Of a DNA stretch of 64,000 nucleotides, positions 6,183-48,529 are shown one piece after another (positions within the stretch are counted from its first letter, which is position 1; the number at the start of each line of letters is the position of its first letter). Position numbers and translations under genes: made by a program. This stretch comes from Longimicrobiales bacterium (GTDB taxonomy: Bacteria > Gemmatimonadota > Gemmatimonadetes > Longimicrobiales > Gaopeijiaceae). Below the pieces are notes generated by a model, which was not told the DNA's origin, did no database searches, and was given only the letters and a program-made list of their open reading frames with translations. The stretch is taken from NCBI GenBank assembly GCA_965238005.1, contig OZ250165.1, positions 4,320,001 through 4,384,000 of the forward strand, written 5' to 3'.

Positions 6183-6245
6183 TTCTGCTTGCGCCTCCCG
6201 GCCCACTTTCGGATGTTGACCTCGGTCTGATCCCGGAGTGCGCCC
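6183..6245 (+). promoter_or_regulatory. Conserved kinase/cyclase leader element, copy 1
   Basis: TTCTGCTTGCGCCT-N-GGATGTTGACCTCGGTCTGATCC; repeated at 8827, 22002(-) and 48471(-). Confidence 0.75.
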
Positions 6246-6390
6246 GTGTCCGATCCAGTTATCCGTCTCAACGTCGCCCTGAAGGGCCGCTACCGCATCG
6301 ACCGGGAGCTAGGCGAGGGCGGGATGGCTACCGTCTATCTGGCCGATGACACAAAGCACGAGCGCAAGGTCGCGCTCAAAACCCTGGAGT
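6246..6390 (+). pseudogene. Ser/Thr protein kinase N-terminal fragment
   Basis: MSDPVIRLNVALKGRYRIDRELGEGGMATVYLADDTKHERKVALK, then homology stops. Confidence 0.85.
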
Positions 6391-6451
6391 GCGCGTGTAG
6401 GCCGGGCGTAGTCTCTTATCAGTCTACCGAGACCCACAGCAAGGGAGTCCC

Positions 6452-6949
6452 ATGAAAAAGTGGCTGAGGCGCATCCGTGGCGCAGTCGGCATGGGGCTGA
6501 CTTGGGCTGCAGCATGGCTCGGCGTCGGTTCCATACTCAATGCGGTAACTGCGGTAGTCTTCGGGGGCAGCCAGGGGATCGAGGGTATGGTCCTCTACGC
6601 CATTGCCGGCTTTGTCGTCGGTACTGCTTTCTCCGGGGTCCTGGGGCTCGCTGAGGGCCGTCGGAACTTCCATCAGATGTCCCTCGGGCGCTTCGCCGCT
6701 TGGGGGGCGTTGGGGGGTCTTCCACTGGGGCTTTACATGTCATGGCTCAATGGCGATTTCGCGCCTGGAGGGAGCATCGCGGCGGCGCTGCTTCTTACCG
6801 CCGTGCCAACACTGCTCGGTGCGGGCTCCGCCGCCGGTTCGCTGGCACTGGCTCGAAGGGCAGACGACCGCGAGATGCTCGAAGCCGGTGCAGAAGTTGC
6901 CGACATTGGGCTGACCGAAGAGGAGAAGCGCGAGCTGCTCGCGGGGTAG
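6452..6949 (+). CDS. Hypothetical membrane protein (about 4 TM)
   Basis: Hydrophobic 165-aa ORF, RBS AAGGGAG. Confidence 0.75.
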   Translation: MKKWLRRIRGAVGMGLTWAAAWLGVGSILNAVTAVVFGGSQGIEGMVLYAIAGFVVGTAFSGVLGLAEGRRNFHQMSLGRFAAWGALGGLPLGLYMSWLNGDFAPGGSIAAALLLTAVPTLLGAGSAAGSLALARRADDREMLEAGAEVADIGLTEEEKRELLAG

Positions 6950-7336
6950 GAGAGGCTGGCACCGTGTGTTGGGCGCTGAGTCGCAGTTCCATCCAGCCAT
7001 CGCCCAACCTCAGCATCACCCATAGCTTGACCTCAGCGGTCCGAATCGAAGGACCCCTGCTTCCCGCAGCCCAGGAGGTTGACAATGCTTCGTGTTGCTT
7101 GGTTCACCTTATGTGCAAGTCTATGATCGGTTCCCCTATCTCTATCGGCTCTCGTGCCGAGCCCAAGCGGATCTGTACGGCATCGCCTCTGAGCGACCAA
7201 ACGACTGGATCGTCGACGGACGTGTTCGCCTGCTCGACTTCCTACGCGCCTACGAGTTGTACAGCACTGGGTAATCCGGGGTCACGAGGGACCGACGAAC
7301 CAGGGTAGGTGGGGCGGAAAACACAACAAGAGACCA

Positions 7337-7618
7337 ATGATGCTTACGACGGAAGAATGTGAACAACTCCGGGCCCAAGCCGAACTGCAAGGGATGCCTG
7401 CATGCGAAAAGTGTAAGGTCATCCCTGGGACCCTAACGGATGACATAATCACGGTACGTGAAGTTCCGGCCGTGCCGATGTCTCAGGCCGACCGGGATGT
7501 ACAGGTCGCCCGAGCTAAGCATGAGTGGACCGTAGTGGTTCAGGATGTCACCTACGCGGTCGGGCAAGATAGCCGATACCTGTTGATCGCCTATGCGCCC
7601 TGGCCCGGAACCACCTAA
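7337..7618 (+). CDS. Hypothetical protein, possibly phage-derived
   Basis: 93-aa ORF with CxxC, in a mobile-debris region. Confidence 0.35.
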   Translation: MMLTTEECEQLRAQAELQGMPACEKCKVIPGTLTDDIITVREVPAVPMSQADRDVQVARAKHEWTVVVQDVTYAVGQDSRYLLIAYAPWPGTT

Positions 7619-7743
7619 GGCGGCGGGGACCCCCATGAGGCGGGTAGAGGCGGGAGGAGCAGACTAGAGCTTCCTGGGACCCATCCGACACCACTGACCC
7701 ACCCCCAAAGGCTAGATCCATCGACCTCCAGAACTCGTTCCAC

Positions 7744-7853
7744 GCGAGTTAGCCGGAGCCCAAGCGGAATCTCCAGTCACCGCCGGGAGTCGCTCGCGCG
7801 CTTCGCTTGCGGTCGGCATCTTGGTTCCGCAGCAGAATCGCAGATCCGTTAGA
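7744..7853 (+). mobile_element. Degenerate integron attC-like site
   Basis: Imperfect palindrome (GCGGAA...TTCCGC; GCGAGTTAGC...GCAGAATCGC) ending in a GTTAGA R'-box-like motif; no RYYYAAC box at the left. Confidence 0.45.
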
Positions 7854-8217
7854 GTGCGCCGTGCAAAGGTGGCGCGTTCTTGCAGGTGGAAGTCCTGCCG
7901 AGGCAGTTGGCGGTTCAGCCTCGTAGCTACGGGCGGGCGGTCTTCGGGTAACGGGAGGTCGTCAAGCCGCTCGGACAAGAGCCCTCGAAAGGAGGGCCAG
8001 CAAATCTGCGGGCCGAACGCGAGTGAACCCTGAGCAGGCCCCGAAAGAGCAGTCGCGAGAGCCGACCCGACTCTAACGCGGGGAAGGCCGCCGTATCCGG
8101 GACTGGGACAACCGCCGGTTCCGGGTGACTCGCCGGGGTAGTGGGGACGGCACGTAGAGACAGAACGCGTCGCAACACGGGAGGCCCACGGAGGCGAGGG
8201 GGTCGCTGCCCCTCAAC
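7854..8217 (+). ncRNA. Group II intron 5' portion (domain I), truncated, no RT ORF
   Basis: Starts GTGCGCCGTGCAAAGGTGGCGCGTTCTTGCAGGTGGAAGTCCTGCC; later GGGGAAGGCCGCC...GCCGGGGTAGTGGGGACGGCACG...CAACACGGGAGGCCC typical of domain I; no domain V/VI seen. Confidence 0.75.
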
Positions 8218-8685
8218 CGGATTCAGCATCTCGTGGACCGCCGAGCTGAGAAGCTGGAGTACGAGTCGGAGCAGGTAGTTCTGGAGACCGCCCGGCTGGC
8301 CATGAGCATCATCTGCGACGTCAGGGAGATCACCGAGAGCGGCGACGTGGTGGTCTTCCCCTCGGACACGTGGAGTGATCACACGGCGAAGGCGGTGAGC
8401 GAGGTCACAGTCCACAAGACCGAGCACTACGGCAAGGACGGAGGCCTCCGCAGCATCAGCACGCGGACCAACGTGAAGATGCATCCAAAGCAGGCGGCGC
8501 TGGCCCTACTCTCCCAGCAGCTCGGCATCATCGGCAAGGCCGCGAAGCAGCGTCCGGTCTGTTTGGAGGACATGGGCATCTGCATCCTCCCGACCCTCGA
8601 CGAGGAGCCCGACTGGGAGCGCATCGAGGACGGCGACCCACGCTACTCGCTGGTCAGGCCGCCGAGTGACGACGGGGACGAGTGA
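8218..8685 (+). pseudogene. Phage terminase small subunit-like, N-terminally truncated (copy 2)
   Basis: EQVVLETARLAMS...TAKAVSEVTV...NVKMHPKQAALALLSQQLG resembles the TerS C-terminal pattern. Confidence 0.6.
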
Positions 8686-8826
8686 TGAATTATCAGGAAG
8701 AGATCATTCCTTCAGATCAGCAAGCCGATAACGGCCTCTGAGCCACGAGGATGGTCCAGCCTACCCCCAGGGATACCGAGTAAATCCCGAAGACGCTCTA
8801 CACGCCTTTACACGCGTCTGACAGGG

Positions 8827-8877
8827 TTCTGCTTGCGCCTACCGGGCCGCTTTCGGATGTTGACCTCGGTCTGATCC
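8827..8877 (+). promoter_or_regulatory. Conserved kinase/cyclase leader element, copy 2
   Basis: TTCTGCTTGCGCCTACCGGGCCGCTTTCGGATGTTGACCTCGGTCTGATCC, 20 bp before ATG 8898. Confidence 0.75.
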
Positions 8878-8897
8878 TCCTATCCACGGACCGCTCG

Positions 8898-11800
8898 ATG
8901 ACTAGCTCCAAGAGGCGTCGCCTTCTCGCCGTGATGTTCACGGATGTGGTGGGCTACACGGCATTGATGCAGCGGGATGAGGAAGCGGCCCGGATCGTCC
9001 GACGACGCCACCGGGAGGTGTTGGAGGCGGCTGTTTCCTCAAACGGTGGTGATCTGCTTCAGTACTTAGGCGATGGAAGCCTCACCACGTTCCCGAGTGT
9101 CGTTGATGCGGTACGCGCCGCGATCGAGGTTCAACGCGGGCTCCGCCAGGAACCCGTCGTCCCGTTGCGGATCGGCATCCATCAGGGTGACATCTCCTAC
9201 GACACCCAGGGCGCTTACGGCGATAGTGTAAACATCGCCTCACGAATCCAGTCACTGGGGCCAGCCGGCAGCATCTTGGTCTCTGCGAAGGCTCATGACG
9301 AGGTCAAGAATCAGCCTGACATCACTACGACCCCTCTCGGTGAGTTCGAGCTAAAGAATGTCGAAGAATCGTTGCAGGTTTACGGGATTGTGGCAGACGT
9401 GCTCACGGTCCCGACTCGCAGTGAGGTTCTTACAAAGATTCGAAGTGCGCCTGACGCTGCGTTGAACATCACAATCCGCCTGAACACGGCTCTCGAGGGC
9501 CGCTACCGCGTAGGGCGTGAGCTTGGCCAGGGCGGCATGGCTACGGTTTACTTGGCCGAGGACCTGAGGCACGAGCGGAAAGTCGCCCTCAAGGTTCTCA
9601 AGCCTCAAGTCGCAGCAGTCGTGGGTGCCGAACGCTTCCTGGCCGAGATCAAGACCACAGCGAATCTCCAGCATCCGCACATCCTGCCGCTGTTCGACTC
9701 CGGCGTGGCCGACGGGTTCTTTTTTTATGTGATGCCCTACGTGGAGGGGGAGAGTCTGCGGGGTAGGCTGGACCGTGACCATCAGCTTCCGGTCGACGAG
9801 GCCGTCCGCATCGCCACGTACATGGCCGAGGCGCTCGACTACGCTCACCGCCGCGGAGTGATCCACCGCGACATCAAGCCGGGGAATGTCCTGATCCATG
9901 ATGGGCAGCCGGTGATCTCTGACTTCGGCATCGCCCTCGCGGTTGGGGCTGCCGGAGGGGATCGGCTTACCCAAACAGGCCTCAGTATGGGAACGCCGTG
10001 CTACATGTCGCCTGAGCAGGCGACCGGCGAACAGACGGTGGGGCCGGCCACAGACACCTACGCGCTCGGGTGTGTCCTGTACGAAATGCTAGTCGGTGAA
10101 CCGCCGTACACGGGCAGAACAGCGCAGGTGATCCTCGGCAAGAGCATCGCGGGGGAACCCGTGTCGGCTACCGAGCACCGTCCATCGGTCCCGGCAAATG
10201 TGGACGCGGCGATCAGAAACGCTCTAGAGAAGCTGCCAGCGGATCGCTTCACGGGCGCTCAGGACTTCGCTAAGGCGCTGGAGGATGAGCACTTCCGGTA
10301 TGGGGAACTGGTAACGGAAGGTGCAAGCGCCGCCGCGGGTCCATGGAAGGGATTGTCAATCGCCTTGGCGGCTGCCTTGGCCGCGACGCTCGGATGGTCG
10401 CTACTCAGCCCCGAACCACCCGCGCCGCTCGCCCGATTCTCGTCACCTTTCGAGGAGGGACAGTTTCCGGCTCCGGCTTCGTTTACGATGGAGTTCATGG
10501 CGGACGGCTCCGCGTTGGTGTACGTGGGACCGGATGCGTCAGGCGGGGGCACGCAGTTGTGGCTACGGCGTTGGGCCGACCTCGATGCAACACCCATTCA
10601 GGGAACAGAAGGTGCGATCGACGTCGCGCTGTCGCCCGACGGGCGAGAGGTGGCATTTGTGGCCCAGCGTGCGTTGCGTGTGGCCCCACTCGACGGTGGC
10701 CCGAGCCGGGCGCTGGTCGAGCTGGACGGCGGGGTCTCGGAGTGGACTTCGGACGGGACTGTGTACTTCACTGAACCCCCCGCCTCACTCGGACTCGCCC
10801 GCATTCCAGCCACAGGCGGAGGTAGCGAGGCAGTCGAGAGCATTACCGAGTTGCTAGAAGGCGAAGCCTACCACGGCTTTCTCAGCGTGCTTCCGGGGGG
10901 AATCATGGGGGTGTTCCAGGTAATGCACTCCCTGACTGGAGAGGACGCTGAGGTCTGGGCCATAGACCTGGACACCCGCGAGAGAAGGTTCCTCACGGCG
11001 GGCACCACACCGCGCTACGCTTCGACGGGGCACTTGCTGTTCGTAACGCCGGACGGTGTCCTCATGGCGCAGCCTATGGACCCAGCCACGGCAGAGCTTA
11101 CTGGCCCGGCCGTCCCGGTGGTAGAGGGTCTCGCGATCAACATCGGCCTTGCAGCCTATGCGGTGTCGGAGAGCGGGACGCTGATCTATTCGGCCGGGGG
11201 CCTGGCTGCGGTTGAGGGGATCTTCGAGCCAGTATGGGTGACGCGCTCAGGCGAGGCGGCACCTGTCGATCCTGGCTGGCGGTTCAACGCCATGGAGGGC
11301 TTCGGATTGAGGCTTTCGTCGGACGGCGCACGGGTGGCTATCACACAGAGGGTTGATGGAAACGAGGATGTCTGGATCAAGCAGCTTCCTGACGGACCGC
11401 TTGAGCGGCTCACATCAGATGACCTGGTCGACGCCTCCCCTTTCTGGAGTCCGAACGGTCAGTTCGTCGCCTACAGTAGGGGGGTACTGAACGGCGACAT
11501 CTGGCAAAGGCGTGCCGACGGGACGGGGTCGCCGCAGCTGGTACTCGACGACGAGCGAAGCCTGTATCAGGGCCGCTGGAGCCCCGACGGCGAGTGGATC
11601 GTATTCCGCACAATTACAGGACCCACACCGTCGTCCGACGACGACATCGTTGGCTTCCGGCCAGGCGTGGACAGCGCCGCGATACCGTTGGTTGCGAGCC
11701 CAGAGTTCTCCGAACAATCCCCGGCCCTATCCCCGAATGGGCGCTGGCTCGCGTACACTTCCGACCGGACAGGTCGGAGGGAAGTCTACGTCACGCCCTT

Positions 11801-12146
11801 CCCTGACGTCGATTCAGACCCAGTGTCAGTCTCGCGGGCCGGGGGACAAGCCCCCCTGTGGGCGCACAGCGGCAGCGAGTTGTTCTTCGTCGATGCCCAG
11901 GGAGGGCTCATTGCGGCTGGGGTAGAGGCGGATTCGGTGTTCCGCATCCTTCAGAGAGAGACGCTTTTCACCATCGGGTCGGAATACCTCCTTCTGGAGG
12001 GTATGGATTTCCACGACATCCGGCCCGACGACGAACAGTTCCTGATGGTACGTGCGGCGGTAGTCAGCGCTGAATCCAGTGGCGATACCCGGTTCATACT
12101 GGTCGAAAACTGGTTCACTGAGCTTCGCGAGCGGATGGGTAATTGA
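8898..12146 (+). CDS. Class III cyclase-like domain + Ser/Thr kinase + TM + TolB/PD40 beta-propeller protein
   Basis: MFTDVVGYT/LRIGIHQGD; GQGGMATVY, HRDIKPGN, DFGIA, YMSPEQ; repeated WSPDG/LSPNG motifs. Confidence 0.9.
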   Translation: MTSSKRRRLLAVMFTDVVGYTALMQRDEEAARIVRRRHREVLEAAVSSNGGDLLQYLGDGSLTTFPSVVDAVRAAIEVQRGLRQEPVVPLRIGIHQGDISYDTQGAYGDSVNIASRIQSLGPAGSILVSAKAHDEVKNQPDITTTPLGEFELKNVEESLQVYGIVADVLTVPTRSEVLTKIRSAPDAALNITIRLNTALEGRYRVGRELGQGGMATVYLAEDLRHERKVALKVLKPQVAAVVGAERFLAEIKTTANLQHPHILPLFDSGVADGFFFYVMPYVEGESLRGRLDRDHQLPVDEAVRIATYMAEALDYAHRRGVIHRDIKPGNVLIHDGQPVISDFGIALAVGAAGGDRLTQTGLSMGTPCYMSPEQATGEQTVGPATDTYALGCVLYEMLVGEPPYTGRTAQVILGKSIAGEPVSATEHRPSVPANVDAAIRNALEKLPADRFTGAQDFAKALEDEHFRYGELVTEGASAAAGPWKGLSIALAAALAATLGWSLLSPEPPAPLARFSSPFEEGQFPAPASFTMEFMADGSALVYVGPDASGGGTQLWLRRWADLDATPIQGTEGAIDVALSPDGREVAFVAQRALRVAPLDGGPSRALVELDGGVSEWTSDGTVYFTEPPASLGLARIPATGGGSEAVESITELLEGEAYHGFLSVLPGGIMGVFQVMHSLTGEDAEVWAIDLDTRERRFLTAGTTPRYASTGHLLFVTPDGVLMAQPMDPATAELTGPAVPVVEGLAINIGLAAYAVSESGTLIYSAGGLAAVEGIFEPVWVTRSGEAAPVDPGWRFNAMEGFGLRLSSDGARVAITQRVDGNEDVWIKQLPDGPLERLTSDDLVDASPFWSPNGQFVAYSRGVLNGDIWQRRADGTGSPQLVLDDERSLYQGRWSPDGEWIVFRTITGPTPSSDDDIVGFRPGVDSAAIPLVASPEFSEQSPALSPNGRWLAYTSDRTGRREVYVTPFPDVDSDPVSVSRAGGQAPLWAHSGSELFFVDAQGGLIAAGVEADSVFRILQRETLFTIGSEYLLLEGMDFHDIRPDDEQFLMVRAAVVSAESSGDTRFILVENWFTELRERMGN

Positions 12147-12320
12147 CCCGTCAGATCCCCTGTTCGCGTCTTCGTGGAAGGCGTGGTGATCGTCGGCAAC
12201 CTGCGGCCAGATACTCAGGGTTCCCCTCCCATCCACTGAGTCCTCGCCAGGCAACCCGAGTTTTTGGGGTCCCGCTTGGGGTCCCATAGGCCTCTTTTCG
12301 CCCCTCAGCTCACCGACACC

Positions 12321-12358
12321 AAAAAGCCGGAAGCCCGGGTAACTCCTGGACTCCCGGC
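12321..12358 (-). terminator. Intrinsic terminator downstream of the tRNA fragment
   Basis: Minus strand GCCGGGAGTCCAGG-AGTTA-CCCGGGCTTCCGGC-TTTTT. Confidence 0.7.
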
Positions 12359-12361
12359 CAG

Positions 12362-12404
12362 TGCCTCGCCAGGGACTCGAACCCCGAACCTACTGATTAA
12401 GAGT
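12362..12404 (-). mobile_element. tRNA-Lys(CTT) 3' fragment (att core)
   Basis: Minus strand ACTCTTAATCAGTAGGTTCGGGGTTCGAGTCCCTGGCGAGGCA; 5' half absent. Confidence 0.85.
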
Positions 12405-12823
12405 TCGACCGGAACATATACGCAGAGTGCCCGTGAGGTAGTCTAAGTTGTGGCGAAGTCTTGGGGCTAGGGGGTCGATTGTCCTCTCGAGGGTTCCCGA
12501 GATTCGACCCGTTTCGGGGAGTTTGGGGTCCCGGTTGGCGTCCCGATGCACCCATCCGTCCTCCGAGACGGACCGTGGGACAGTACCTCCCAAGGAGCTG
12601 ATTCCACCGTCGCGTGCACATGGCGGGACGAGCATCTTTAGGTGCTCAAATCCCGGTCGTCATATGCACAAGGCTGAAAAGGCGCAGCCAGAGAGCCGCA
12701 CCCTCCTACCCACTGTGACTCCCTTCACTCCTTGTCTCTTGCCATGCCCCAACCTACAATGCCATCAGCCTCGGACGCCCGTTGAATCTCCTTCCCCCTC
12801 CCCCACCCAGCGGGGCCCGCCCC

Positions 12824-14509
12824 ATGACCCACCGTCCTTCGTTCCGGCACGCACTCCCGCTCCTGGTGACGGGGGCCGTCCTCCTCGGGCTTGCGGCGGA
12901 TGCGGGCGGCCAGACGCCGCAGGCCGTCCTGCCCGCCCCGCCGCGCGCGGAAGGCGAGGGGCCGTTCGACCGCCTGATCATCCGGGGCGGGACCCTGATC
13001 GACGGGACGGGCGCGCCGCCCCGGGGGCCGGTGGACATCGTCATCGAGGGGAACCGGATTGTCGAAGTCGTGGGCGTCGGTACCCCCGGCCGGCCCATCG
13101 ACCCGGACCGGCGGCCGGGCGGCGCCACGCGGGAGATCGACGCCCACGGCGCCTGGGTGCTTCCGGGTTTCGTCGACGTGCACGTCCACATCGCCGACGT
13201 GAACGCCGGAGGCGACCCGTCGCAAAGCGAGATCCTCAAGGTCCCGGAGGCCGAATACAACTACAAGCTCTGGCTCGGCCACGGCATCACCACGGTCCGC
13301 GGGGTTCCCTTCGGCGAGATGGACTGGTCCCTGAACGAACGGGACCGCAGCGCCCGGAACGAGATCACCGCGCCCCGCTTGGTCTCGTACCACGTACCCG
13401 GCAGCGGCCGGGAATGGGGCGGGCGGCAGATCCTCACGCCCGAGGATGCCCGGGAGTGGGTGCGGTGGGCGGCGGAGAAGGGGATCGACGGCCTCAAGCT
13501 GGATGCCTACCGGCCCGAGATCATGCAGGCGCTGCTAGACGAGGCCGGCCGCCACAGGCTCGGCTCGTCGGCCCACCTCAGGCAGACGGGTGTCGCCCGG
13601 ATGAACGCCCTGGACGCCACCCGTCTCGGCCTCGGCACCGTCACCCATTTCTACGGGATCTTCGAGGCGCTCTACGACGATCACGACGTGCAGCCGTGGC
13701 CGCCGGAGATGAATTACAGTGACGAGCAGCTCCGGTTCGGCCAGGTGGCCCGCCAGTGGAACCTGATCGGTCCCCAGGGCTCGGAGGCGTGGAACGCCCT
13801 CATCGACGAGTTCCTGGAGCTGGACGTGATCCTCGATCCCACGATGACCGCGTACGTGGCGACGCGGGACGTGATGGCGGCCCGCCGGGCGGACTGGCAC
13901 GCGGAGTACACGCTTCCCTCCCTGTGGGACTTCTATGTCCCCAACCCCACCAGCCACGGCTCCTACTTCGCAGACTGGACCACATGGGACGAGGTGGCGT
14001 GGAAGCGGTTCTACCGGACGTGGATGGCCTTCCTCGACGACTACAAGGACGCCGGCGGCCGGGTGACGGTCAGCTCGGACGCCGGCTTCACGTACAACCT
14101 CATGGGCTTCTCGACCATCGAGGAGATGGAGCTCCTGCAGGAAGCCGGATTCCATCCCTTGGAGGTGATCCGGGGGGCCACGCTCCAGGGCGCTGAGGCC
14201 CTCTTCGAGCCCCGGGGCGAGCCCATCCGGTTCGGCGTGGTCCGGCCGCGACTCCTGGCGGATCTGGTGATCGTGGGCGAGAACCCGATCCAGAACCTGA
14301 AGGTCCTTTACGGCACTGGACACGTGCGCCTGGACGACGAGACCGGCAGCCCGGAGCGGGTCGGCGGCGTGACGTACACAATCAAGGACGGGATCGTCTA
14401 CGACGCGAAGGAGCTCCTGGCCGACGTGCGCCGCATGGTCGAGGAGCAGAAGCAGGAGCGCGGGATCACGTCGCTCCCTGGCCCCGAAGCCCGACCCCAC
14501 ATGAGGTAG
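12824..14509 (+). CDS. Secreted amidohydrolase family protein (paralog 1)
   Basis: Signal peptide; IRGGTLIDGTG, PGFVDVHVH, SSDAG, ADLVIVGENP. Confidence 0.9.
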   Translation: MTHRPSFRHALPLLVTGAVLLGLAADAGGQTPQAVLPAPPRAEGEGPFDRLIIRGGTLIDGTGAPPRGPVDIVIEGNRIVEVVGVGTPGRPIDPDRRPGGATREIDAHGAWVLPGFVDVHVHIADVNAGGDPSQSEILKVPEAEYNYKLWLGHGITTVRGVPFGEMDWSLNERDRSARNEITAPRLVSYHVPGSGREWGGRQILTPEDAREWVRWAAEKGIDGLKLDAYRPEIMQALLDEAGRHRLGSSAHLRQTGVARMNALDATRLGLGTVTHFYGIFEALYDDHDVQPWPPEMNYSDEQLRFGQVARQWNLIGPQGSEAWNALIDEFLELDVILDPTMTAYVATRDVMAARRADWHAEYTLPSLWDFYVPNPTSHGSYFADWTTWDEVAWKRFYRTWMAFLDDYKDAGGRVTVSSDAGFTYNLMGFSTIEEMELLQEAGFHPLEVIRGATLQGAEALFEPRGEPIRFGVVRPRLLADLVIVGENPIQNLKVLYGTGHVRLDDETGSPERVGGVTYTIKDGIVYDAKELLADVRRMVEEQKQERGITSLPGPEARPHMR

Positions 14510-14515
14510 CGCACC

Positions 14516-16132
14516 ATGGTCAAGGATCTCTCCTCCCTCCGACGGCTGGTCCCACTCCTGATGGTGGGCGCGCTCCCCGTTTCTTCGCCGGCCGACGCCA
14601 CCGCCCAGGTCCCGGACTTCATCACGCCAGCACCCTCCCGGCAGGAGGGCGATGGGCCCTTCGATCGCCTCATCATCCGGGGCGCCACCGTCATCGACGG
14701 AACCGGCGCTCCGCCGCGGGGCCCCATGGACATCGTCATCGAGGGCGATCGGATCGTGGACATGGTGCAGGTGGGGGCCCCCCGCGTGCCCATCGAGGAG
14801 AGCCGCCGGCCCGGGGGCGCCACGCGGGAGATCGACGCCCACGGCGCCTACGTGCTGCCGGGCTTCATCGACCTCCACGTCCACACAGGCGCTCCGGGGA
14901 AGACGCCCGAGGCCGAGTACATCTACAAGCTCTGGCTCGGCCACGGTATCACCACCGTGCGGGGTGTCGCCTTGGCCGACGGCACGCTCTTCTGGGGGCT
15001 CCGAGAGAAGGAGCGGAGCGCCCGCAACGAGATCACCGCGCCCCGGATGTTCGCGTGCATCAAGAATCCGGACCGGGTGCCCGGCTGGGACGATCCCCAC
15101 CTCCTGACACCGGAGGCGGGACGAGCGTGGGTTCGCTTCGCCGCCGAGAGCGGCGCGGACTGCCTCAAGCTGGGACGCTACTCCGAGGGGATGATGGACC
15201 CTCCCGTCATGAGGGCGATCCTGGACGAAGCCCGGAATCTCGGCCTGGGCACGACTGCCCACCTCCACCAGACCGGCGTGGGACAGATGAACGCCTTGGA
15301 CATGGCCCGGGCCGGCCTCGGCACCCTCACCCACTATTACGGCCTGTTCGAGTCCCTGTACCGGGACGACGACATCCAACCCTTCCCGGTGGACTACAAC
15401 TACGCGGACGAGCAACACCGCTTCGGTCAGGTCGCCCGCCAGTGGAACATGATCCACCCCCAGGGATCGACGGAGTGGAACGACCTCATCGACGAGTTCC
15501 TGGAGCTGGACTTGATCCTCGACCCGACCATGACGGCGTACGTGGCCAGCCGGGACGTGACTCGGGCCCGCAACGCCGACTGGCACGACGAATACACGCT
15601 CCCGTCGCTCTGGGACTACTACCAGCCGAGCCGGGAGAACCACGGGTCGTACTACTATGACTGGACCACGTGGGACGAGGTGGCGTGGAGGAACTTCTAC
15701 CGGGTGTGGATGGACTTCCTGGACGACTACAAGGACGCGGGCGGGCGGGTGACGGTGAGTTCGGACGCGGGCTTCATCTACAACCTCTTCGGCTTCTCGA
15801 CCATCGAGGAGATGGAGCTCCTCCAGGAGGCAGGCTTCCACCCCCTGGAGGTCATCCGGGGCGCCACCATGCACGCGGCCGAGGCCCTCTTCGAGCCCCG
15901 GGGCGAGCCCATCCAGTTCGGCGTGGTGCGGACGGGGCTCCTGGCGGACCTGGTGATCGTGGAGGAGAACCCCATCCAGAACCTGAAAGTGCTCTACGGA
16001 ACGGGGGCCCTCCGCCTGAACGATGAGACGGGCCGCGTCGAGCGCGTGGGTGGCGTGAAGTACACGATCAAGGATGGCATCGTGTACGACGCGAAGGAGC
16101 TCCTCGCCGACGTGCGCCGTATGTCGAGGTGA
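14516..16132 (+). CDS. Secreted amidohydrolase family protein (paralog 2)
   Basis: PGFIDLHVH; C-terminus shorter than paralogs (ADVRRMSR*). Confidence 0.9.
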   Translation: MVKDLSSLRRLVPLLMVGALPVSSPADATAQVPDFITPAPSRQEGDGPFDRLIIRGATVIDGTGAPPRGPMDIVIEGDRIVDMVQVGAPRVPIEESRRPGGATREIDAHGAYVLPGFIDLHVHTGAPGKTPEAEYIYKLWLGHGITTVRGVALADGTLFWGLREKERSARNEITAPRMFACIKNPDRVPGWDDPHLLTPEAGRAWVRFAAESGADCLKLGRYSEGMMDPPVMRAILDEARNLGLGTTAHLHQTGVGQMNALDMARAGLGTLTHYYGLFESLYRDDDIQPFPVDYNYADEQHRFGQVARQWNMIHPQGSTEWNDLIDEFLELDLILDPTMTAYVASRDVTRARNADWHDEYTLPSLWDYYQPSRENHGSYYYDWTTWDEVAWRNFYRVWMDFLDDYKDAGGRVTVSSDAGFIYNLFGFSTIEEMELLQEAGFHPLEVIRGATMHAAEALFEPRGEPIQFGVVRTGLLADLVIVEENPIQNLKVLYGTGALRLNDETGRVERVGGVKYTIKDGIVYDAKELLADVRRMSR

Positions 16133-16465
16133 GCTTCGACCGACAGCGTCCTCAACCCTGTACGAGAACGCCCGGGTGGTCGCAGAGTCCAAGTGTGACG
16201 CTCCAGCCGCGAACGCGGTCACGGTTCGCTTCGGGGTCGAATCGGGAGTCCTCGGATCGTCCCGTTGAAGGCGGATTGCCGGGGGGGGGATTCGCCGAAT
16301 ACGCGAACCGAGGGAGCGGTTGTCCGACTCCCTTGCGGCGCCTTGTGGCCTCCCCGTATTGTCGCGACCACAGGGCTCTTCCCAAGGGGGGTGGACCCCA
16401 ACGCTTGCCCGGCTGCACCCTGTCCGCACCGGGCACGGCAACCCCAACCGCGAGGATCGAGCGAC

Positions 16466-18130
16466 ATGAGACCTCACATCATGATGAAGTACCCATTCCT
16501 GGCTCTGGCGGCCGCGGCCGTCCTGGCCCTGGGGACGGCAACTCCGGCCCAAGCACAGGGGCGGGAGGTGGAGCAGGCCCCTGACCGGGCCCGGGGAGAA
16601 GGCCCCTTCGAACGACTCATCATCCGGGGAGTCAACATGATCGACGGCGCCGGGAGCCCGCCTCAGGGCCCGGTGGACATCGTCATCGAGGGGGATCGCA
16701 TTACCCAGATACGGGGCGTCGGCGCCCCCCTCGTGGAGATCGACGAGGCCCGCCGGCCCGGAGGAGCGACCCGGGAGATCGACGCCCACGGCATGTTTGC
16801 CATGCCCGGCTTTGTGGACATCCACATGCACACCGGCGGCGTGCCTAAAGCACCCCAGGCGGAATACATGTACAAGCTCTGGATGGGCCACGGGATCACC
16901 ACCACCCGGGGCGTCGGATACGGCCCCTTCGAGTGGTCGCTGCGGGAGAAGGCGCGCAGCGTGCGGAACGAGATCACCGCGCCCCGGATGTTCGTGTACG
17001 TGCGCCCCGGCTCGGGTGAGGGGTGGACCGGCGGCTCGCTCAACGACCCGGAGACTGCGCGCGCGTGGGTACGCTGGGCCGCCGAGCAGGAGATCGACGG
17101 CGCAAAGGTCGACGGCCTGAAGCTCGGGTCCTACGACCCGGACATCATGGAGGCGCTCATCGACGAGGCCCACAAGTTCGGCCTGGGCACGGTTGCCCAT
17201 CTAGGGCAGACTGGCGTCGCCCGCATGAACGCCCTCGACGCCGCCCGGATCGGACTGGACGCCGTGACTCACTTCTACGGGCTCTTCGAGGCCTTGTACG
17301 ACGATCGTGACGTCCAGCCCTGGCCGGTGGACCAGATCAACAACGACGAGCAGCAACGCTTTGGCGAGGTGGCCAGTCAGTGGAACATGATCCACCCACA
17401 GGGCTCGGACGAGTGGAACGCCCTCATCGACGAGTTCCTGGAGCTGGAATTGATCCTCGACCCGACCATGACGGCGTACGTGGCGACGCGGGACGTGATG
17501 CGGGCCCGCAACGCCGACTGGCACGCCGAATACACGCTCCCGTCGCTCTGGGACTACTACCAGCCGAACCGGGTGAACCACGGCTCCTACTACTACGACT
17601 GGACCACGTGGACCGAGTTGACGTGGAAGAGCTTCTACCGCGTGTGGATGGCCTTCCTGGACGATTACAAGGACGCCGGCGGCCGGGTGACGGTCAGTTC
17701 GGACGCGGGCTTCACCTACAACCTCTTCGGCTTCTCGACCGTCGAGGAGATGGAGCTCCTCCAGGAAGCGGGCTTCCACCCCCTGGAGGTCATCCGGGCC
17801 GCCACCCTGCACGGGGCCGAGGCTATCTTCGAGCCGAAGGGTGAGCGCATCGAGTTCGGGATCCTCCGGCCGGGCATGAAGGCCGACATCGCGATCGTGG
17901 GGGAGAACCCCATCCAGAACCTGAAGGTGCTCTACGGGACCGGGGCGGTCCGGCTCAACGACGAGACGGGCATGGCCGAGCGCGTCGGCGGCGTCCTGTG
18001 GACGATCAAGGACGGCATCGCCTACGACGCAAAGGAGCTCCTGGCCGACGTGCACCGCATGGTCGAGGAGCAGAAGCGGGAGCGGAGAGTCACCACGCTG
18101 CCAGACGTGCCGTGGGCGGGACGAAACTGA
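16466..18130 (+). CDS. Secreted amidohydrolase family protein (paralog 3)
   Basis: Signal peptide (…TPAQA), PGFVDIHMH; start inferred. Confidence 0.9.
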   Translation: MRPHIMMKYPFLALAAAAVLALGTATPAQAQGREVEQAPDRARGEGPFERLIIRGVNMIDGAGSPPQGPVDIVIEGDRITQIRGVGAPLVEIDEARRPGGATREIDAHGMFAMPGFVDIHMHTGGVPKAPQAEYMYKLWMGHGITTTRGVGYGPFEWSLREKARSVRNEITAPRMFVYVRPGSGEGWTGGSLNDPETARAWVRWAAEQEIDGAKVDGLKLGSYDPDIMEALIDEAHKFGLGTVAHLGQTGVARMNALDAARIGLDAVTHFYGLFEALYDDRDVQPWPVDQINNDEQQRFGEVASQWNMIHPQGSDEWNALIDEFLELELILDPTMTAYVATRDVMRARNADWHAEYTLPSLWDYYQPNRVNHGSYYYDWTTWTELTWKSFYRVWMAFLDDYKDAGGRVTVSSDAGFTYNLFGFSTVEEMELLQEAGFHPLEVIRAATLHGAEAIFEPKGERIEFGILRPGMKADIAIVGENPIQNLKVLYGTGAVRLNDETGMAERVGGVLWTIKDGIAYDAKELLADVHRMVEEQKRERRVTTLPDVPWAGRN

Positions 18131-19564: not shown

Positions 19565-20494
19565 CTACCCCTTCACGATCGCCGTCGCCACCTGTCTGCC
19601 TGCCTGCCTCGGCGCCACGGGTTTCAGCGTATCACCCTCTGCGGCCTCGCCCTCTACAATGGTGCAGACCGACGACTGCGAGAGCACGCGTGTGACCTCG
19701 ATGACTCCCACCACGTCGGTGATCTGGTCGAGAACCTCGCCCGCGGCGTTGACGATCTCGTCGATCACGCGGTGCACTTCGGAGCGCTGGCCGACCTGCA
19801 CGCCGAAGTTCTCGCCCTGGTCGATGTAGATCGATCCGTCGGCGGCGCTGCCCACGATCACCGGCATCGCCACCGGGGGCGCGGCGACCTCCGTGATCAC
19901 GAACCTGTCCCTCTGGCGCACGAGTGCTTCGACGATGTTGTCCGCGGCCGGGCCGAGGGCTTCCTCCGCGGCGCCCCGGTCCATCGCCGACATGCTGATG
20001 ACCCCGCTCACGTTAACGAGTCGCTTGCTCCCGGAGCCCTCCGTGGCCGTGATGATCTCGCCCGTCTCCGTGCTGAAGGCACGGACGTTCATCTCGCTCT
20101 CGGCTTCCGTGTAGCCGACGTTCCTGCCCAGGACGCGTGTGCCCCTCTCGTCGATGGAGAACCGCGTCACGGAGCCGGTGATCAGATACATGACGCCGGC
20201 GAGTCGACCGATCTCGACAACGTCGCTCGGGTTGACCTGGCCTGAGAGCTGGAAGCCCTGCTCCTCGAGGATCGCTTGCAGCCGCTCGCGCTCGATGACG
20301 GTGAACGCCCCCGAGTTCACGAGCCGCGTTACGATCATGTCGGCGGCCACGTTGCCCATCTCGCCGGCCCACCGGTCGGTCCTGTTGTCGAAGGGGAAGA
20401 CCGCCACTCGCGGCTTGTCCTGGGCGAGAACCGGCCCACCCGCCGAAAGCACGGCTGCGGTGGCGACAATGATTCCTCTGAGCAGCTTGCTCAT
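19565..20494 (-). CDS. CsgG/HfaB family secreted protein
   Basis: Signal peptide, RVAVFPFDN, FTVIERERLQAILEEQ, YLITGSVTRF. Confidence 0.85.
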   Translation of the reverse strand: MSKLLRGIIVATAAVLSAGGPVLAQDKPRVAVFPFDNRTDRWAGEMGNVAADMIVTRLVNSGAFTVIERERLQAILEEQGFQLSGQVNPSDVVEIGRLAGVMYLITGSVTRFSIDERGTRVLGRNVGYTEAESEMNVRAFSTETGEIITATEGSGSKRLVNVSGVISMSAMDRGAAEEALGPAADNIVEALVRQRDRFVITEVAAPPVAMPVIVGSAADGSIYIDQGENFGVQVGQRSEVHRVIDEIVNAAGEVLDQITDVVGVIEVTRVLSQSSVCTIVEGEAAEGDTLKPVAPRQAGRQVATAIVKG

Positions 20495-20516: not shown

Positions 20517-21995
20517 CTAGTCGCGAAGCGCCCGCACGAGCCAGCCTCTGGCAGCGGTTGCACCCTGTCTGCCGGCTTCCAGGGCGGCCTCGGTCCGGGC
20601 GTCGAGCGCGGTGCGTCCGGGCTTGGCGGGCTCGCCTCCCATGCCAACCCGGAACGCGGCCGAGTTGACGACCTCTCCCGTAGAGACCCGGTACATCCGG
20701 AGCTCGAGCTGCGCGCTGCCGCCGAACATGGGGCCGACGGCCTGAGTGGCGGTCGACTGGAGATCACCGACGATCATGAACTCCGCCCCGTACCGCCGCC
20801 CGAGGCTCGCGAGGGATGCGAAGTCACCCTCGAGCGCCGACCGTACGGCCGGCTCGTCCTCCCGGATGAGCGCCAGGCTGCTGGCGTCCATCACCCTCAC
20901 CTCCCGGCGGCTCCTCAGCGAGCGGAGGATCGATCCCTCCACGAGTCGGGGACCCGGACCGTCGCCGTACACGATGACGAGTAGGCCGTTACGGGGTGCC
21001 TCATCGACGACCCCCTCATCGGGAGTCTCGGCTGCCGTGGTGGGCCTGACCCCGGGCTGCTGGGGCCCAGGGTCGTCGACGGGGGGCGTCTGCGTGTCCG
21101 TGCCGGAGTCGCCACCACCCGCGATGGAGTCGGTCGCCCGCCCGACGTCGGGAAGCGGCTCACTCGCCTGTCCCCCGGCGTCCTCCGCAGGCGAGCTCTG
21201 CTGATCCGTCGCGACGGCGGCCGGCGGGTCGCCGCCTTCCTCGCCCTCCGCCCGTGATCCTTCGCCCACGGTGACGGTTGACGCGACGAAGACCGAGAGG
21301 AGAATGAAGCCGACCACCGAGGTGGCTATTCCCACGGCCACGGCCTTCCGGTGCCAGGCGCTCGTCCGCTTGGGCGGTCGGTCGGAGGCGGCCGCCGCTG
21401 CGGCGCCGGCGAGGGCCGACTCGGGCACCGCGACCGTCTCTCCCGGACGGGCGAGCACGTAGAGCGTGGCTGGCTTGTCGACGCCCTTGAGCGAGTGCTG
21501 ACCGATGGACTGCGGGTCGTACTTGGACCGGTTGCGGATCAACCGATACACTTCTTCACTCACTACGATCTGGTCTGCGGTCGCGACGCCCTCGATGCGG
21601 GCGGCCACGTTGACGCCGTCGCCGTACACGTCTCCGTCTTCGGCCTCGACGACCTCACCGACGTGGACGCCGACGCTCAGGCTACAGTCGTGTGAGCGTA
21701 CGACTTCCAAGCCGTCGAAGGCCTCACGGAGCGCGATCGCGCTCTCGAGGGCTCGGTTGGTCGAGTCGAAGACGGCGAGAGCGCCGTCCCCGAGGAACTT
21801 CACGACCCGGCCCTTGCCCCCGACAGCTTCATGGACGAGCCGCTGGAACTCGTCCACTATCGCCAGCGCCGCGTCCTCGTCCCGGTTGGAGAGGGCCGTG
21901 TAGCCGACGATGTCGGCGAACCAGACGGCGGCGAGGCGCCGTGTGCGATCCCGTGCCACGTCTACGAAGTTAAGGCCATATGGTCGCTCATGCAT
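20517..21995 (-). CDS. Class III cyclase domain + TM + low-complexity linker + extracellular CsgG-like domain
   Basis: RRLAAVWFADIVGYTAL, VKFLGDGAL, GVHVGEV, YGDGVNVAARIE. Confidence 0.85.
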   Translation of the reverse strand: MHERPYGLNFVDVARDRTRRLAAVWFADIVGYTALSNRDEDAALAIVDEFQRLVHEAVGGKGRVVKFLGDGALAVFDSTNRALESAIALREAFDGLEVVRSHDCSLSVGVHVGEVVEAEDGDVYGDGVNVAARIEGVATADQIVVSEEVYRLIRNRSKYDPQSIGQHSLKGVDKPATLYVLARPGETVAVPESALAGAAAAAASDRPPKRTSAWHRKAVAVGIATSVVGFILLSVFVASTVTVGEGSRAEGEEGGDPPAAVATDQQSSPAEDAGGQASEPLPDVGRATDSIAGGGDSGTDTQTPPVDDPGPQQPGVRPTTAAETPDEGVVDEAPRNGLLVIVYGDGPGPRLVEGSILRSLRSRREVRVMDASSLALIREDEPAVRSALEGDFASLASLGRRYGAEFMIVGDLQSTATQAVGPMFGGSAQLELRMYRVSTGEVVNSAAFRVGMGGEPAKPGRTALDARTEAALEAGRQGATAARGWLVRALRD

Positions 21996-22001
21996 CTCCT
22001 C

Positions 22002-22053
22002 GGATCAGACCGAGGTCAAGATCCTATGCGCGGGCTGGTAGGCGTAAGCAGAA
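22002..22053 (-). promoter_or_regulatory. Conserved kinase/cyclase leader element, copy 3
   Basis: Minus strand TTCTGCTTACGCCTACCAGCCCGCGCATAGGATCTTGACCTCGGTCTGATCC, followed by GAGGAG-ATG. Confidence 0.75.
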
Positions 22054-41052: not shown

Positions 41053-41781
41053 ATGAAAGGCACAGCTGCTCTCGTGCTCATGGGGACCGTTGGGGCCCTC
41101 CTTGGCGGGGCTGCCGAGGGCCAAGAGGCCACGCCGCGGATGCAGCCGGGGGCTGCCATGACCCTGTACGCGCCCGAACAGCACGATCTCTACGACGGTC
41201 GCTTCGTTCTCTCCGCTGGCCGCGTACACCAGGTCGGACGTCTCCGGGACGCGCCCGGGTGGGATCACATGGGCAACGACGGGGCAGGCGTGCACCCCGT
41301 CGGTGGCACGGTCGAGATAGACGTGAATGAGATCGACAACACCGGGCGGTTCGTAGCGCGGCTGGAGGTCCCGGAGGGAGATCTCTCCATTGAAATGGAT
41401 CGATTCAACGAATTCAGTCCGTGTCAGGACGGGGGAGTCGCGGCCTTCATCTTCGAGCACGGCGACTCAGGATGCGGTGATACCAACTGGCCCAAGACGC
41501 TTCTGTATGTGGCGGGTTGGGGTTTTGGTCACGCGACCCTGAACGGCGCGACGCTCTATGAGGACTACCAGATACATTTCATGGTGACGCAGGGCATGCG
41601 CGACCGGGAAACTCTAGAGGTGAACTATCCGCTTCTGAACAAGAGCTCCGCGGCGGGCGCCGTGAATCCCGCGGTCATCCAACTCGACTTCTTCATACGC
41701 AGCCCGGAGGGGGACGACAGAAACGACCCCACGCGTGCGGTCTTCGATCACTTCTTCGCAATGGAAGTGACTTGGAGGTAG
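41053..41781 (+). CDS. Secreted hypothetical protein
   Basis: RBS GGAGG, signal peptide, 242 aa. Confidence 0.75.
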   Translation: MKGTAALVLMGTVGALLGGAAEGQEATPRMQPGAAMTLYAPEQHDLYDGRFVLSAGRVHQVGRLRDAPGWDHMGNDGAGVHPVGGTVEIDVNEIDNTGRFVARLEVPEGDLSIEMDRFNEFSPCQDGGVAAFIFEHGDSGCGDTNWPKTLLYVAGWGFGHATLNGATLYEDYQIHFMVTQGMRDRETLEVNYPLLNKSSAAGAVNPAVIQLDFFIRSPEGDDRNDPTRAVFDHFFAMEVTWR

Positions 41782-41807
41782 ATACGGCCTCCTTTGAGCT
41801 TCGAGGC

Positions 41808-45868: not shown

Positions 45869-46473
45869 GAGAGGGCCTCCGGCTCGTCGGACGACCGCTC
45901 CAGGTTGCGGCACGTGCGCGGCGAAACGCGCCGCCCGTAGCAAAGGTCCACCGCCTCCGGCGAGTCGAACCAGTGGGCCATGAGCGCCGTGGCCACGTGG
46001 CGGGCACGAAGGGGTGACGGGAGGCCGGTGCCGCGGTCGGCGGCCATCGCCGCGGTGACGAGGTCATGCCGTGCGGGGCCGTCCATCTCGGCGAAGGGCG
46101 CCCCATGGCGCCTGTGCGCCTCCAGATCCAGCGCGTCGAGCTGGGCCCGCCAGCCGGGGGCGGGGTCGGGCGGTCCGTAGCGGATCTCGTGGGTGCCGTA
46201 TCCGTGGTTCAGCTCCGGCACTGCCCTATAGTCCCGCACCCACGCGGCGAAGTCGGCCACCGCCTGCGCCCGCCCGTCGTCGCCGAGCTCCGCCGGCAGG
46301 ACGACCGCCCCCACCGCGTCGAGGAGCGGACCGGCCAGATCACGGCTGGGCTCGGCGGTCTCGCCGGTCTGGGCGGTATCGCTGGGCGGTGTGCCCGGCA
46401 CACACCCGGCGGCAGCCGCGGCGGAGAGAGCCGCGCCGGTGCGCTTGAGGAAGCTACGGCGATCGTGGGTCAT
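45865..46473 (-). CDS. Tat-exported gluconate-2-dehydrogenase subunit 3-like protein
   Basis: DRRSFLK twin-arginine signal; overlaps the GMC gene. Confidence 0.75.
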   Translation of the reverse strand: MTHDRRSFLKRTGAALSAAAAAGCVPGTPPSDTAQTGETAEPSRDLAGPLLDAVGAVVLPAELGDDGRAQAVADFAAWVRDYRAVPELNHGYGTHEIRYGPPDPAPGWRAQLDALDLEAHRRHGAPFAEMDGPARHDLVTAAMAADRGTGLPSPLRARHVATALMAHWFDSPEAVDLCYGRRVSPRTCRNLERSSDEPEALS

Positions 46474-48470
46474 GGGTCGGGCAGCGCGAAGACCACCAGC
46501 GTTCCACCGTCAGCCCCGCCACCCGCGGCGATCGCCACGTACTGACGACCGTCCGACGTCCCGTACGACATCGGGTTGGCGTAGCCGCGGGCGGGCAGCT
46601 CGCCGCGCCACAGCTCCTCTCCGGTGGAGGCGTCGAAGGCCCAGAGCGCGTCGTCCCCTCCCGTAAGGAAGACGAGGCCGCCACGGGTGACGATGGGCCC
46701 TGGCGCTCCGGACACACCGAGTCGATCCGGGAGCGCCACCCCCGCGAGCGCCGGATTCGAGCGCACCCGCTCGTCGTCGCCCACCGGGACCTGCCAGGTG
46801 ATCTCCCCGCGGTTCATGTCGATGGCGGTGAGCGTGCCGTACGGCGGGTCGATGATCGGAATGCCGTCCACACGCGTCCGCCCCCGCTTCTCCCGGTCGA
46901 TGTTCCACTCCGCGACGACCCGCATGGTGTCGGCGGGGCCGAGGACAAACACCGCCGGACTCTCCGTGGACTTCACGTACAGCCAGCCGGTCTCCGGATC
47001 GACCGCCGAGCCGCCCCAGTTTCCCCCGCCGATGATCCCGGGCAGGCCGAGCGTCCCCTCGATCGAGGGCGGCGTGTAGAGCGCCCCGAAGCGCATCCCC
47101 CGGACGAGCTCCCGCGCCTTGCGATTGAGCTCGTCTGTGAGGCTCACAAGATCCGCCTCCATGAACCCCTGCCGCGCGAAGGGCGGCGGCCGGGTGGGGA
47201 AGGGCTGGGTTCGGGCAGCACGCTCGCCGGGCACGTCCGAGGCGGGAACCGGGCGGTCCTTGACGGGCCACACCGGCTCGCCGGTCACGCGGTCAAAGGC
47301 GAACACGAAGCCCGTTTTCGCGCTGATCGCCACCGCGTCGACACTGCGCCCGTCGACCTCCGCCGTGTACAGCACCGGCGCACCGGGCAGGTCGTAGTCC
47401 CAGAGGCCGTGGCGTACGGTCTGGAAGTGCCAGACCCGCTCGCCGGTGCGCGCGTCCAGGCAGAGGAGCGCCTCCGCGAACAAGTTGTCGCCCTTCCGGT
47501 CCCCGCCGTAGTAGTCTCCGCTTGGCGTGCCCATGGGCACATACAGGAGCCCGCGCTCCACGTCCACGGTCATGGGCGCCCACGCGTTGGTGTGGCCCTT
47601 CACACGCCACGACCCGTCCTCCCACGTCTCGTTGCCGAACTCGCCTTCCTGGGGGATCGGGTTGAAGCCCCAGACCTTCCGGCCGGTGTGGACGTCGAAG
47701 GCCTGGATGTCACCCGGGGGGTCGCGGGGGTAGACGAACCCGTCCCACACGCCGTTGCCCACGATCACGAGGTCCCCGAAGACCACCGGCGGGGAGGTCT
47801 GCGTGTAGTGCAGACGGTTCGTCGGCCACAGGAGCGTCTCCGTGAGGTCCACCTCGCCGTGGTGGCCGAAGTCCTCGACGGGCGTGCCGGTCGCCGCGTC
47901 CAGAGCGATGAGGCGCCAGCGGGTGTTGAGGAAGATCCTCCTGCCGTCGGGTCCGGTCCACAGCACGACCCCGCGGTGGACCAGGCCCGTCCCGTTGGGT
48001 GGGCGGCCCCACTCCACGGTGCGCGGATCGTAGGACCAGAGCTCGGCACCGGTGCGTGCATCGAGCGCCACCACGCGGTTGAAGGGCGTGGACAGGTACA
48101 TGGTGTCGCCCACCACGAGCGGTGTGACCTCGAAGTTGCCCGCTCTCACGTCCTGGCCCGGGATGGGGCGGAGCGGCGCGGAGATCGGCACGTCTCCTGT
48201 CTCCCAGCTCCACGCCACCTCCAGCGAGGCCACGTTGCTCCGGTCGATCGACGCGAGCGGCGAGTACTTCGTCCCGTCCGTGTTGCCTCCGTAGGTGGGC
48301 CAGTCGCCCTCGGCCGCTGTCCAGGAGCCGCCACCGTTCGAGCCCGGAGCGCAGGCGAGGGTGAGGAGGCCTCCCGCCACGAGGGCGCCGACCGTACGGA
48401 CGCCGGGCCGGCGTCCCGTGCGATAGCGGCCTTCCAGGGCTGCGTTCAGGCGGGTGATGAGATCGGTCAT
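46470..48470 (-). CDS. PQQ-dependent (glucose/quinate-type) dehydrogenase with kinase-derived N-terminal 17 aa
   Basis: DWPTYGG, FEVTPLVV, WHFQTVRHGLWDYD, ANPMSY; starts MTDLITRLNAALEGRYR. Confidence 0.9.
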   Translation of the reverse strand: MTDLITRLNAALEGRYRTGRRPGVRTVGALVAGGLLTLACAPGSNGGGSWTAAEGDWPTYGGNTDGTKYSPLASIDRSNVASLEVAWSWETGDVPISAPLRPIPGQDVRAGNFEVTPLVVGDTMYLSTPFNRVVALDARTGAELWSYDPRTVEWGRPPNGTGLVHRGVVLWTGPDGRRIFLNTRWRLIALDAATGTPVEDFGHHGEVDLTETLLWPTNRLHYTQTSPPVVFGDLVIVGNGVWDGFVYPRDPPGDIQAFDVHTGRKVWGFNPIPQEGEFGNETWEDGSWRVKGHTNAWAPMTVDVERGLLYVPMGTPSGDYYGGDRKGDNLFAEALLCLDARTGERVWHFQTVRHGLWDYDLPGAPVLYTAEVDGRSVDAVAISAKTGFVFAFDRVTGEPVWPVKDRPVPASDVPGERAARTQPFPTRPPPFARQGFMEADLVSLTDELNRKARELVRGMRFGALYTPPSIEGTLGLPGIIGGGNWGGSAVDPETGWLYVKSTESPAVFVLGPADTMRVVAEWNIDREKRGRTRVDGIPIIDPPYGTLTAIDMNRGEITWQVPVGDDERVRSNPALAGVALPDRLGVSGAPGPIVTRGGLVFLTGGDDALWAFDASTGEELWRGELPARGYANPMSYGTSDGRQYVAIAAGGGADGGTLVVFALPDP

Positions 48471-48529
48471 GGGCGCACTCCGGGATCAGACCGAGTCAAC
48501 ATCCCATGGGCACTGGAGGGTGCGCAAGC
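48471..48529 (-). promoter_or_regulatory. Conserved kinase/cyclase leader element, copy 4
   Basis: Minus strand GCTTGCGCACCCTCCAGTGCCCATGGGATGTTGACTCGGTCTGATCCCGGAGTGCGCCC-ATG. Confidence 0.75.

Follow-up and report, generated by a model that had tools for sequence, protein, structure and literature searches.

Deletions can bring a gene under the promoter of an upstream gene, sometimes with the initial codons of the latter fused to it in frame, as the accessible part of one laboratory study describes (Lind et al. 2015, PMC4395868), and the available portion of a second report presents the fadA-fwsR fusions as promoter capture by deletion-fusion (bioRxiv 10.1101/091744). Putative mobile promoters have been described as sequences with at least 80% identity over at least 50 nt before unrelated genes, some of them across taxa (Nijveen, Matus-Garcia and van Passel 2012, PMC3575422). 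Here we examine a repeated element found in a 64,000-nt stretch of the genome of a Longimicrobiales bacterium (GenBank assembly GCA_965238005.1, contig OZ250165.1, positions 4,320,001 to 4,384,000). This whole stretch is called the window; the genome under study is G000, in which the window is G000:C1:4320001-4384000. Based on our observations, we propose that the element is probably the core promoter and 5' leader of a Ser/Thr kinase family, multiplied with the kinases, retained after loss of the kinase bodies and reused before other genes. Like the mobile promoters, it shows at least 80% identity over at least 50 nt upstream of unrelated genes; the published screen excluded paralogous coding DNA and yielded mostly pairs, whereas here there are 40 copies, 22 of them with kinase codons, and the source family is identified. 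One copy in the window, copy 4, has exactly the anatomy of the deletion-fusion captures. As far as the accessible parts of those reports go, the laboratory captures are single events between neighbours with measured transcription, in contrast to the dozens of natural loci presented here, which are known from sequence alone.

How might such an arrangement arise? In the mechanism that we envisage, the kinase family would have expanded and carried its sigma-70-type promoter and leader into many copies. Most kinase bodies would then have been deleted at scattered points, the promoter being probably retained, and the retained promoter would drive whatever gene came to lie behind it. RNA polymerase would bind TTGCGC and GATGTT and start transcription 7-8 nt past the -10 box, within an imperfect dyad. 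The dyad itself may be a mere by-product in which the -10 box supplies the left arm and a putative relic of duplicated kinase start codons the right arm. Three routes could serve to translate the captured cargo: an in-frame fusion, as in copy 4, coupling to the stop codon of a kinase stub, as in copies 1 and 3, or a start of its own, as in copy 2. If this is correct, the element would represent natural promoter capture on a large scale, with a known donor, before dozens of unrelated genes, and dated orthologous cases such as copy 4 would make it possible to test directly how frequently selection favours capture. It would also give these uncultured Gemmatimonadota their first working promoter consensus, one in which the first -10 base may be G or C, and short kinase-like N-termini on their secreted proteins would be real fusions. 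No new regulon is opened by the finding.

The repeat itself is beyond doubt. The original prediction listed four dispersed copies with conserved ends and a variable spacer, and all four are present with that consensus: copy 1 at 6183-6233 and copy 2 at 8827-8877 on the forward strand, copy 3 at 22002-22053 and copy 4 at 48483-48529 on the reverse strand. Their spacers of 17, 17, 18 and 18 nt, the 1-nt deletion in copy 4, the start codons 12, 20, 6 and 12 nt further on and the sequence CTGACAGG common to copies 2 and 3 were likewise verified. The total, however, is not four. A profile search of the genome with the core gave 51 matches, 40 of them at E<0.01, and these 40 are our working set. The 22-nt core has 10, 6, 10 and 3 genome matches at 0, 1, 2 and 3 mismatches (29 in total) versus 0.0 at up to three mismatches for ten letter-shuffled cores, which confirms a repeat far beyond chance; every one of the real matches sits in a homologous copy of the unit or its fragments. 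A conserved block of ~105 bp lies upstream in 26 of the 40 copies and extends the full unit to ~160 bp, copy 2 being the only full-length unit in the window. Searching with this block alone, through a profile trained on copies first found via the core and hence not fully independent of it, recovered 34 genome copies, among which 29 extend to the -35 box, all with an exact TTGCGC, and 26 to the -10 box. In 26 full-length copies of the unit, mean agreement with the consensus is 0.85 for the upstream block, 1.00 for the -35 box, 0.84 for the spacer, 0.90 for the -10 box, 0.78 for the inner dyad and 0.90 for the last six bases. The pattern of conserved ends around a variable spacer therefore holds, but the upstream block, at 85%, is conserved like the spacer, at 84%. 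The copies lie partly in same-strand clusters, and at nine places in G000 (L233:2158-2244 and eight others) the tail of a membrane-protein gene, its final 10-25 codons, stands ahead of the upstream block.

The element is lineage-restricted. Its core pattern occurs in three of 40 relatives (G001, G002 and G011), other searches add G053 and G130, and a scan of one genome per species returned 70 matches at 69 loci in 17 records, 15 of which are titled Longimicrobiales or Gemmatimonadota, the other two being one Chloroflexota and one Acidobacteriota. Single copies are found in the Chloroflexota record (L183), in the Acidobacteriota record (L191, on a 2.2-Mb contig) and in a Gemmatimonadales record (L174). 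A literature search, whose coverage ended short of supplements and subscription journals, found no description of the element or of the kinase expansion, and the element is unmentioned in the accessible part of PMC11316326.

What kind of element is it? The evidence argues strongly for a sigma-70-type promoter consisting of TTGCGC, 17-18 nt and GATGTT. A promoter had been suspected from the outset, and this suspicion is now supported by leaderless paralogs and by genome-wide enrichment of their layout, which together place the -10 box. We collected 60 regions upstream of kinase paralogs from six genomes, picked by kinase protein match alone, regardless of motif. Thirteen display a TTG-led box, 17-18 nt, [GC]ATNNT and then an ATG after 7 nt (12 regions) or 8 nt (one region), the constancy of A2 and T6 being partly built in, as the pattern itself demanded both; seven more contain the leadered element. 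Three further pattern matches in this set were on the opposite strand and were discarded as chance. An ATG ~7 nt past the box is a leaderless layout, which identifies GATGTT as the -10 box and puts the predicted transcription start 7-8 nt further on. This start falls midway through the dyad, so that the transcript would include just one of its halves. Across the genome, the leaderless layout matches 58 of 4272 near-start ATGs versus 13 of 18621 internal ATGs, with genes taken from a rough in-house gene caller. The first -10 base among the 58 is T in 25, G in 16, C in 14 and A in three; as G is usual at this position in the genome, no special sigma factor is needed. Leaderless versions of the kinase promoter are also seen on stubs in G000 itself (G000:C1:1655785, 1987354 and 2337494).

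The copies of the element agree with this layout. Both boxes are present in 35 of the 40 G000 copies, with a spacer of 17 nt in 26 and 18 nt in nine. The -10 box reads GATGTT in 27, GATCTT in four, GACATT in two and GAGATT and CATGTT in one each, so that A2 and T6 are constant and the middle is changeable, and one G002 copy has TTGACA at -35. The four window copies fail a strict TTGACA/TATAAT scan, which gave 0 sites in window positions 6000-9000. In the part of PMC3898074 that is accessible, leaderless promoters of M. tuberculosis carry a TANNNT centred 7-12 bp upstream of mapped start sites. The element resembles sigma-70 housekeeping and leaderless promoters, as covered there, in its TTG-led -35 box, its 17-18 nt spacer and the fixed A and T of its -10 box, and the kinase paralogs resemble leaderless promoters in having this box 7 nt ahead of the ATG; unlike the sigma-70 consensus, the first -10 base here is G or C, not T.

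Where does the right arm of the dyad come from? In 13 of the 40 copies the last 9 nt of the core reappear 21-24 nt downstream, where they supply the Ser-Asp-Pro codons of the kinase start, and in locus L072 of G011 the first of the two positions still holds an intact ATG, after which come the same ribosome-site leader and a second start. The right arm might thus descend from a kinase start that was duplicated, which would explain why in many copies homology breaks off sharply at the core's 3' border. This origin is only suggestive, because L072 is the sole exact case in 151 genomes and may be recombinant.

The DNA behind the element points to the donor. Twenty-two of the 40 copies run on into DNA of the Ser/Thr kinase family, while 18 do not by that test. 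Six of the 22 kinase continuations reach at least 436 nt, and only two, of 904 and 919 aa with Pkinase and PD40 domains, are whole genes; the other 16 end 24-166 nt in, at 15 different positions. Kinase matches per 50-residue bin fall from 30 through 14, 11, 10, 9 and 5 to 3, the later bins being also less conserved among paralogs. There are 40-41 kinase matches each in G011, G014, G045 and G063, 11 in G000 and two in G001, numbers that count matches and not gene copies. Behind the remaining copies the cargo is varied, and most downstream genes are neither kinase nor cyclase, at odds with the regulon of kinases and cyclases that had been put forward. The longest open reading frames (ORFs) there include an alpha/beta hydrolase, GGDEF-FHA, BNR/sortilin, enolase, creatininase, Big_2 (Ig-like), cyclophilin, DUF1326, two DPP IV peptidases, an M20 peptidase, bactofilin, SodC, ABM, DinB and transposases; 16 of the 42 proteins scanned gave no domain match. 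In 21 of 34 cases the DNA beyond the stub occurs nowhere else in the genome.

The four window copies illustrate the range of outcomes. Copy 4 (-35 box 48527-48522, 18-nt spacer, -10 box 48503-48498, reverse strand, with its deletion in the dyad centre) is the one case in which capture is well supported. It precedes a gene for a PQQ-dependent dehydrogenase (46470-48470, reverse strand) whose first 16 codons (48470-48423) are a kinase stub, fused in frame before a hydrophobic stretch with Cys at its end. The sister species G001 has kept the fusion intact (pS 0.115 and dN/dS 0.12 over 666 codons), and the closest G063 homolog of the dehydrogenase has its own start, no element and no fusion. A PadR-like gene, a toxin-antitoxin-like pair and the C-terminal remnant of an ABC permease, labels assigned by eye, precede copy 4 (48500-49900, reverse strand); G001 lacks the pair and the permease remnant.

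In copy 1 (-35 TTGCGC at 6189-6194, 17-nt spacer, -10 GATGTT at 6212-6217, predicted start ~6224-6225) the upstream ~105-bp block is absent. A 69-codon ORF at 6246-6455, forward strand, is a kinase 5' stub in which kinase homology stops at ~6380, and its TGA stop shares bases with the next ORF's ATG (ATGA), as is typical of translational coupling, by which the cargo may be translated. This cargo (6452-6949, forward strand) is a small, hydrophobic protein of 165 aa without a Pfam or NCBIfam match. A homolog follows the element in L183, behind a different short stub, and pieces of it recur in islands of G011. Downstream, 6984-7030 (forward strand) is a copy of a repeated 3' trailer found at other genome sites behind the stop codons of kinases.

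Copy 2 (-35 box 8833-8838, -10 box 8856-8861, predicted start ~8868-8869) has its upstream block at 8721-8824, forward strand, and its core is followed by a second leader variant found before kinase starts in other copies. Domain search identifies the gene behind it (8898-12146, forward strand) as a class III cyclase joined to a Ser/Thr kinase and a PD40 propeller. Its kinase domain shows a dN/dS of 0.135 against G001, where the ortholog retains three kinase start codons ahead of the cyclase start, and the first part of the kinase-family 3' trailer is matched at 12141-12203, forward strand. Copy 3 (-35 TTACGC at 22047-22042, 18-nt spacer, -10 GATCTT at 22023-22018) occupies the same site in G001. 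The 9-codon ORF that follows (21962-21991, reverse strand) begins Met-Ser-Asp, is likely to be a decayed kinase stub and ends 2 nt ahead of an in-frame GTG (ATG in G001), the likely cyclase start, of the class III cyclase gene at 20517-21995, reverse strand. This gene had been labelled cyclase-CsgG-like; Pfam confirms the cyclase (Guanylate_cyc) and adds an LpoB-like domain, but the CsgG match belongs to the next gene (19565-20494). The G001 ortholog of the cyclase carries an in-frame stop, and dN/dS is 0.65. A short-read contig (X3, 19371-22435) spans copy 3 without differences, although the run may be the assembly's own source.

How does a retained and reused kinase promoter stand against other explanations? 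Several observations weigh against it. Coding DNA within 400 nt behind the 34 non-kinase copies is on the same strand in 18, on the opposite strand in three and missing in 13, a same-strand excess over random intergenic points (p 0.004) that does not rise above what follows any stop codon (p 0.16). Stub decay (7 of 137 codons) versus that of key promoter bases (0 of 112) is not significant (p 0.06-0.09; 14 stubs), and whole kinases elsewhere vary as much as stubs (32 of 424); many copies may be plain relics. That the only intermediate for the duplicated start, L072, could be recombinant counts on the same side. Other adverse points would favour a dyad that acts, from its operator-like position over the -10 box and start site, as the binding site of one repressor co-regulating kinases, cyclases and captured cargo. 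Conservation of the inner dyad arms reaches 89-100% across the 27 ungapped G000 copies (eight of the 35 anchored copies, gapped or diverged, were left out), one of these copies has a double compensatory change that gives a perfect alternative palindrome, TGATC is positionally stable across genera (G063, G011 and G053) while adjacent bases drift, and class III cyclases are over-represented, five of 21 lying behind a copy, two of these being duplicates of one unit; cyclase and kinase genes that share signalling islands might account for part of this excess. We nevertheless regard an operator-based regulon, as originally predicted, as unlikely. Over eight symmetric pairs, 2 cells are compensatory versus 46 broken of 440: 2 versus 17 of 216 in G000, both from the copy with the alternative palindrome, and 0 versus 29 of 224 in 28 sequences from other genomes, the pattern-selected loci L154-L222 being left out. 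Moreover, the leaderless paralogs appear to have the same boxes without a dyad, the cargo is functionally unrelated, and homology spans 60-160 bp plus coding DNA, so that convergent selection is not required to explain the conservation; the copies share descent as 5' ends of a single kinase family and did not arise as convergent sites. No paper was found on the idea that TGATCC pairs with the 16S tail.

The original prediction had also offered a recombination anchor that shuffles signalling modules. A site-specific anchor is contradicted by the 15 different end positions of the 16 stubs and no fixed crossover was seen; shuffling through shared homology finds some weak support. The promoter and first kinase codons, with the 3' trailer, might serve as homology arms by which cargo and promoter modules are swapped, a reading compatible with the reuse of a kinase promoter and, to our mind, doubtful as the principal explanation. 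Promoter class is scattered over a tree built from 45 kinase 5' regions, in which the 10 rows that carry the element require nine changes, at least eight of them forced by starred branches, against a shuffled mean of 9.3, a further point against the preferred explanation; all lie inside one 34-row group and form no clade, so that simple descent needs many losses or recombination. Yet the tree covers 450 nt, 19 of its 42 inner branches are open, and its labels are imperfect, as several rows classed as other carry the element further upstream. Trailers lie within 8 kb behind a same-strand element in 11 of 15 copies, some behind unrelated cargo, though a trailer is expected behind kinase remnants anyway. 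Two cargo units are each found twice with different upstream DNA, whereas the mostly unique post-stub DNA speaks against swapping. Stubs fused in frame to secreted-looking proteins are visible, for example, in L006, L010, L155, L157, L174 and L188, and the single copies in Acidobacteriota, Chloroflexota and Gemmatimonadales records would fit exchange, but such foreign records could be binning errors. In its boldest form, which we also hold to be rather improbable, the kinase 5' end would be a recombinable expression shell of promoter, ribosome site and first codons plus trailer, with cargo swapped by homology, secreted proteins borrowing the kinase start and shells reaching other phyla; if true, this would be an integrase-free route of gene capture run on a signalling family's own paralogy. 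Far less credible, and already largely refuted, is the view of the element as a structured RNA, a miniature mobile element or a site-specific crossover site such as attC. The sharp homology edge, the same-strand clusters and the presence in the genome of attC-like repeats and 48 tyrosine-recombinase matches would favour it, but both ends of the unit are variable, single-strand folds of six stretches are no better than shuffles (z-scores -1.35 to +0.08), the consensus fold of 32 copies reaches -3.3 kcal/mol with no covariation, and no Rfam match covers any copy. The upstream ~105-bp block similarly has no conserved RNA fold, and its dyad shows no two-sided change.

Specific mobile elements were considered and rejected. 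The attC-like repeat of the genome is a different sequence from the element, and IS91-type rolling-circle mobilisation is represented by only four short Y2 transposase pieces in the genome. A young insertion sequence adjoins kinase 5' DNA four times, which leaves the scattered stub ends unexplained. This insertion sequence, which encodes DUF772 and DDE transposase and is presumably of the IS1182 family, has undergone a recent burst on G000:C1, with 45 near-identical ends (for example at 1657411 and 2138480), 44 of them at CTAG.

Other features of the window and genome are recorded here. Two tRNA-like 3' fragments, at 5970-6015 (reverse strand) and ~12360-12404, flank the region of copies 1 and 2; ARAGORN calls neither, and read by eye they are tRNA-Ile-like and tRNA-Lys-like and may be integration scars. 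A sequence resembling the fragment at ~12360-12404 lies next to a tRNA-Lys at another genome position. Between the two copies, 7792-8180 holds an attC-like repeat (10 genome copies) and then the truncated 5' part of a group II intron (RF02003, 7880-8022), the only Rfam hit, and looks like the relic of an attC-targeting intron. It is followed at 8233-8685 by a 150-aa ORF without a Pfam or NCBIfam match, which by eye we take to be a fragment of a phage terminase small subunit. Positions 12782-18130 hold three amidohydrolase paralogs in tandem, with 65-78% similarity in blocks of 300 nt. Elsewhere in the genome, tRNA arrays of 18 and 17 genes are located at G000:C1:1035994-1037821 and 4451264-4453598, one of which holds a tRNA-Ile(AAT), unusual in bacteria.

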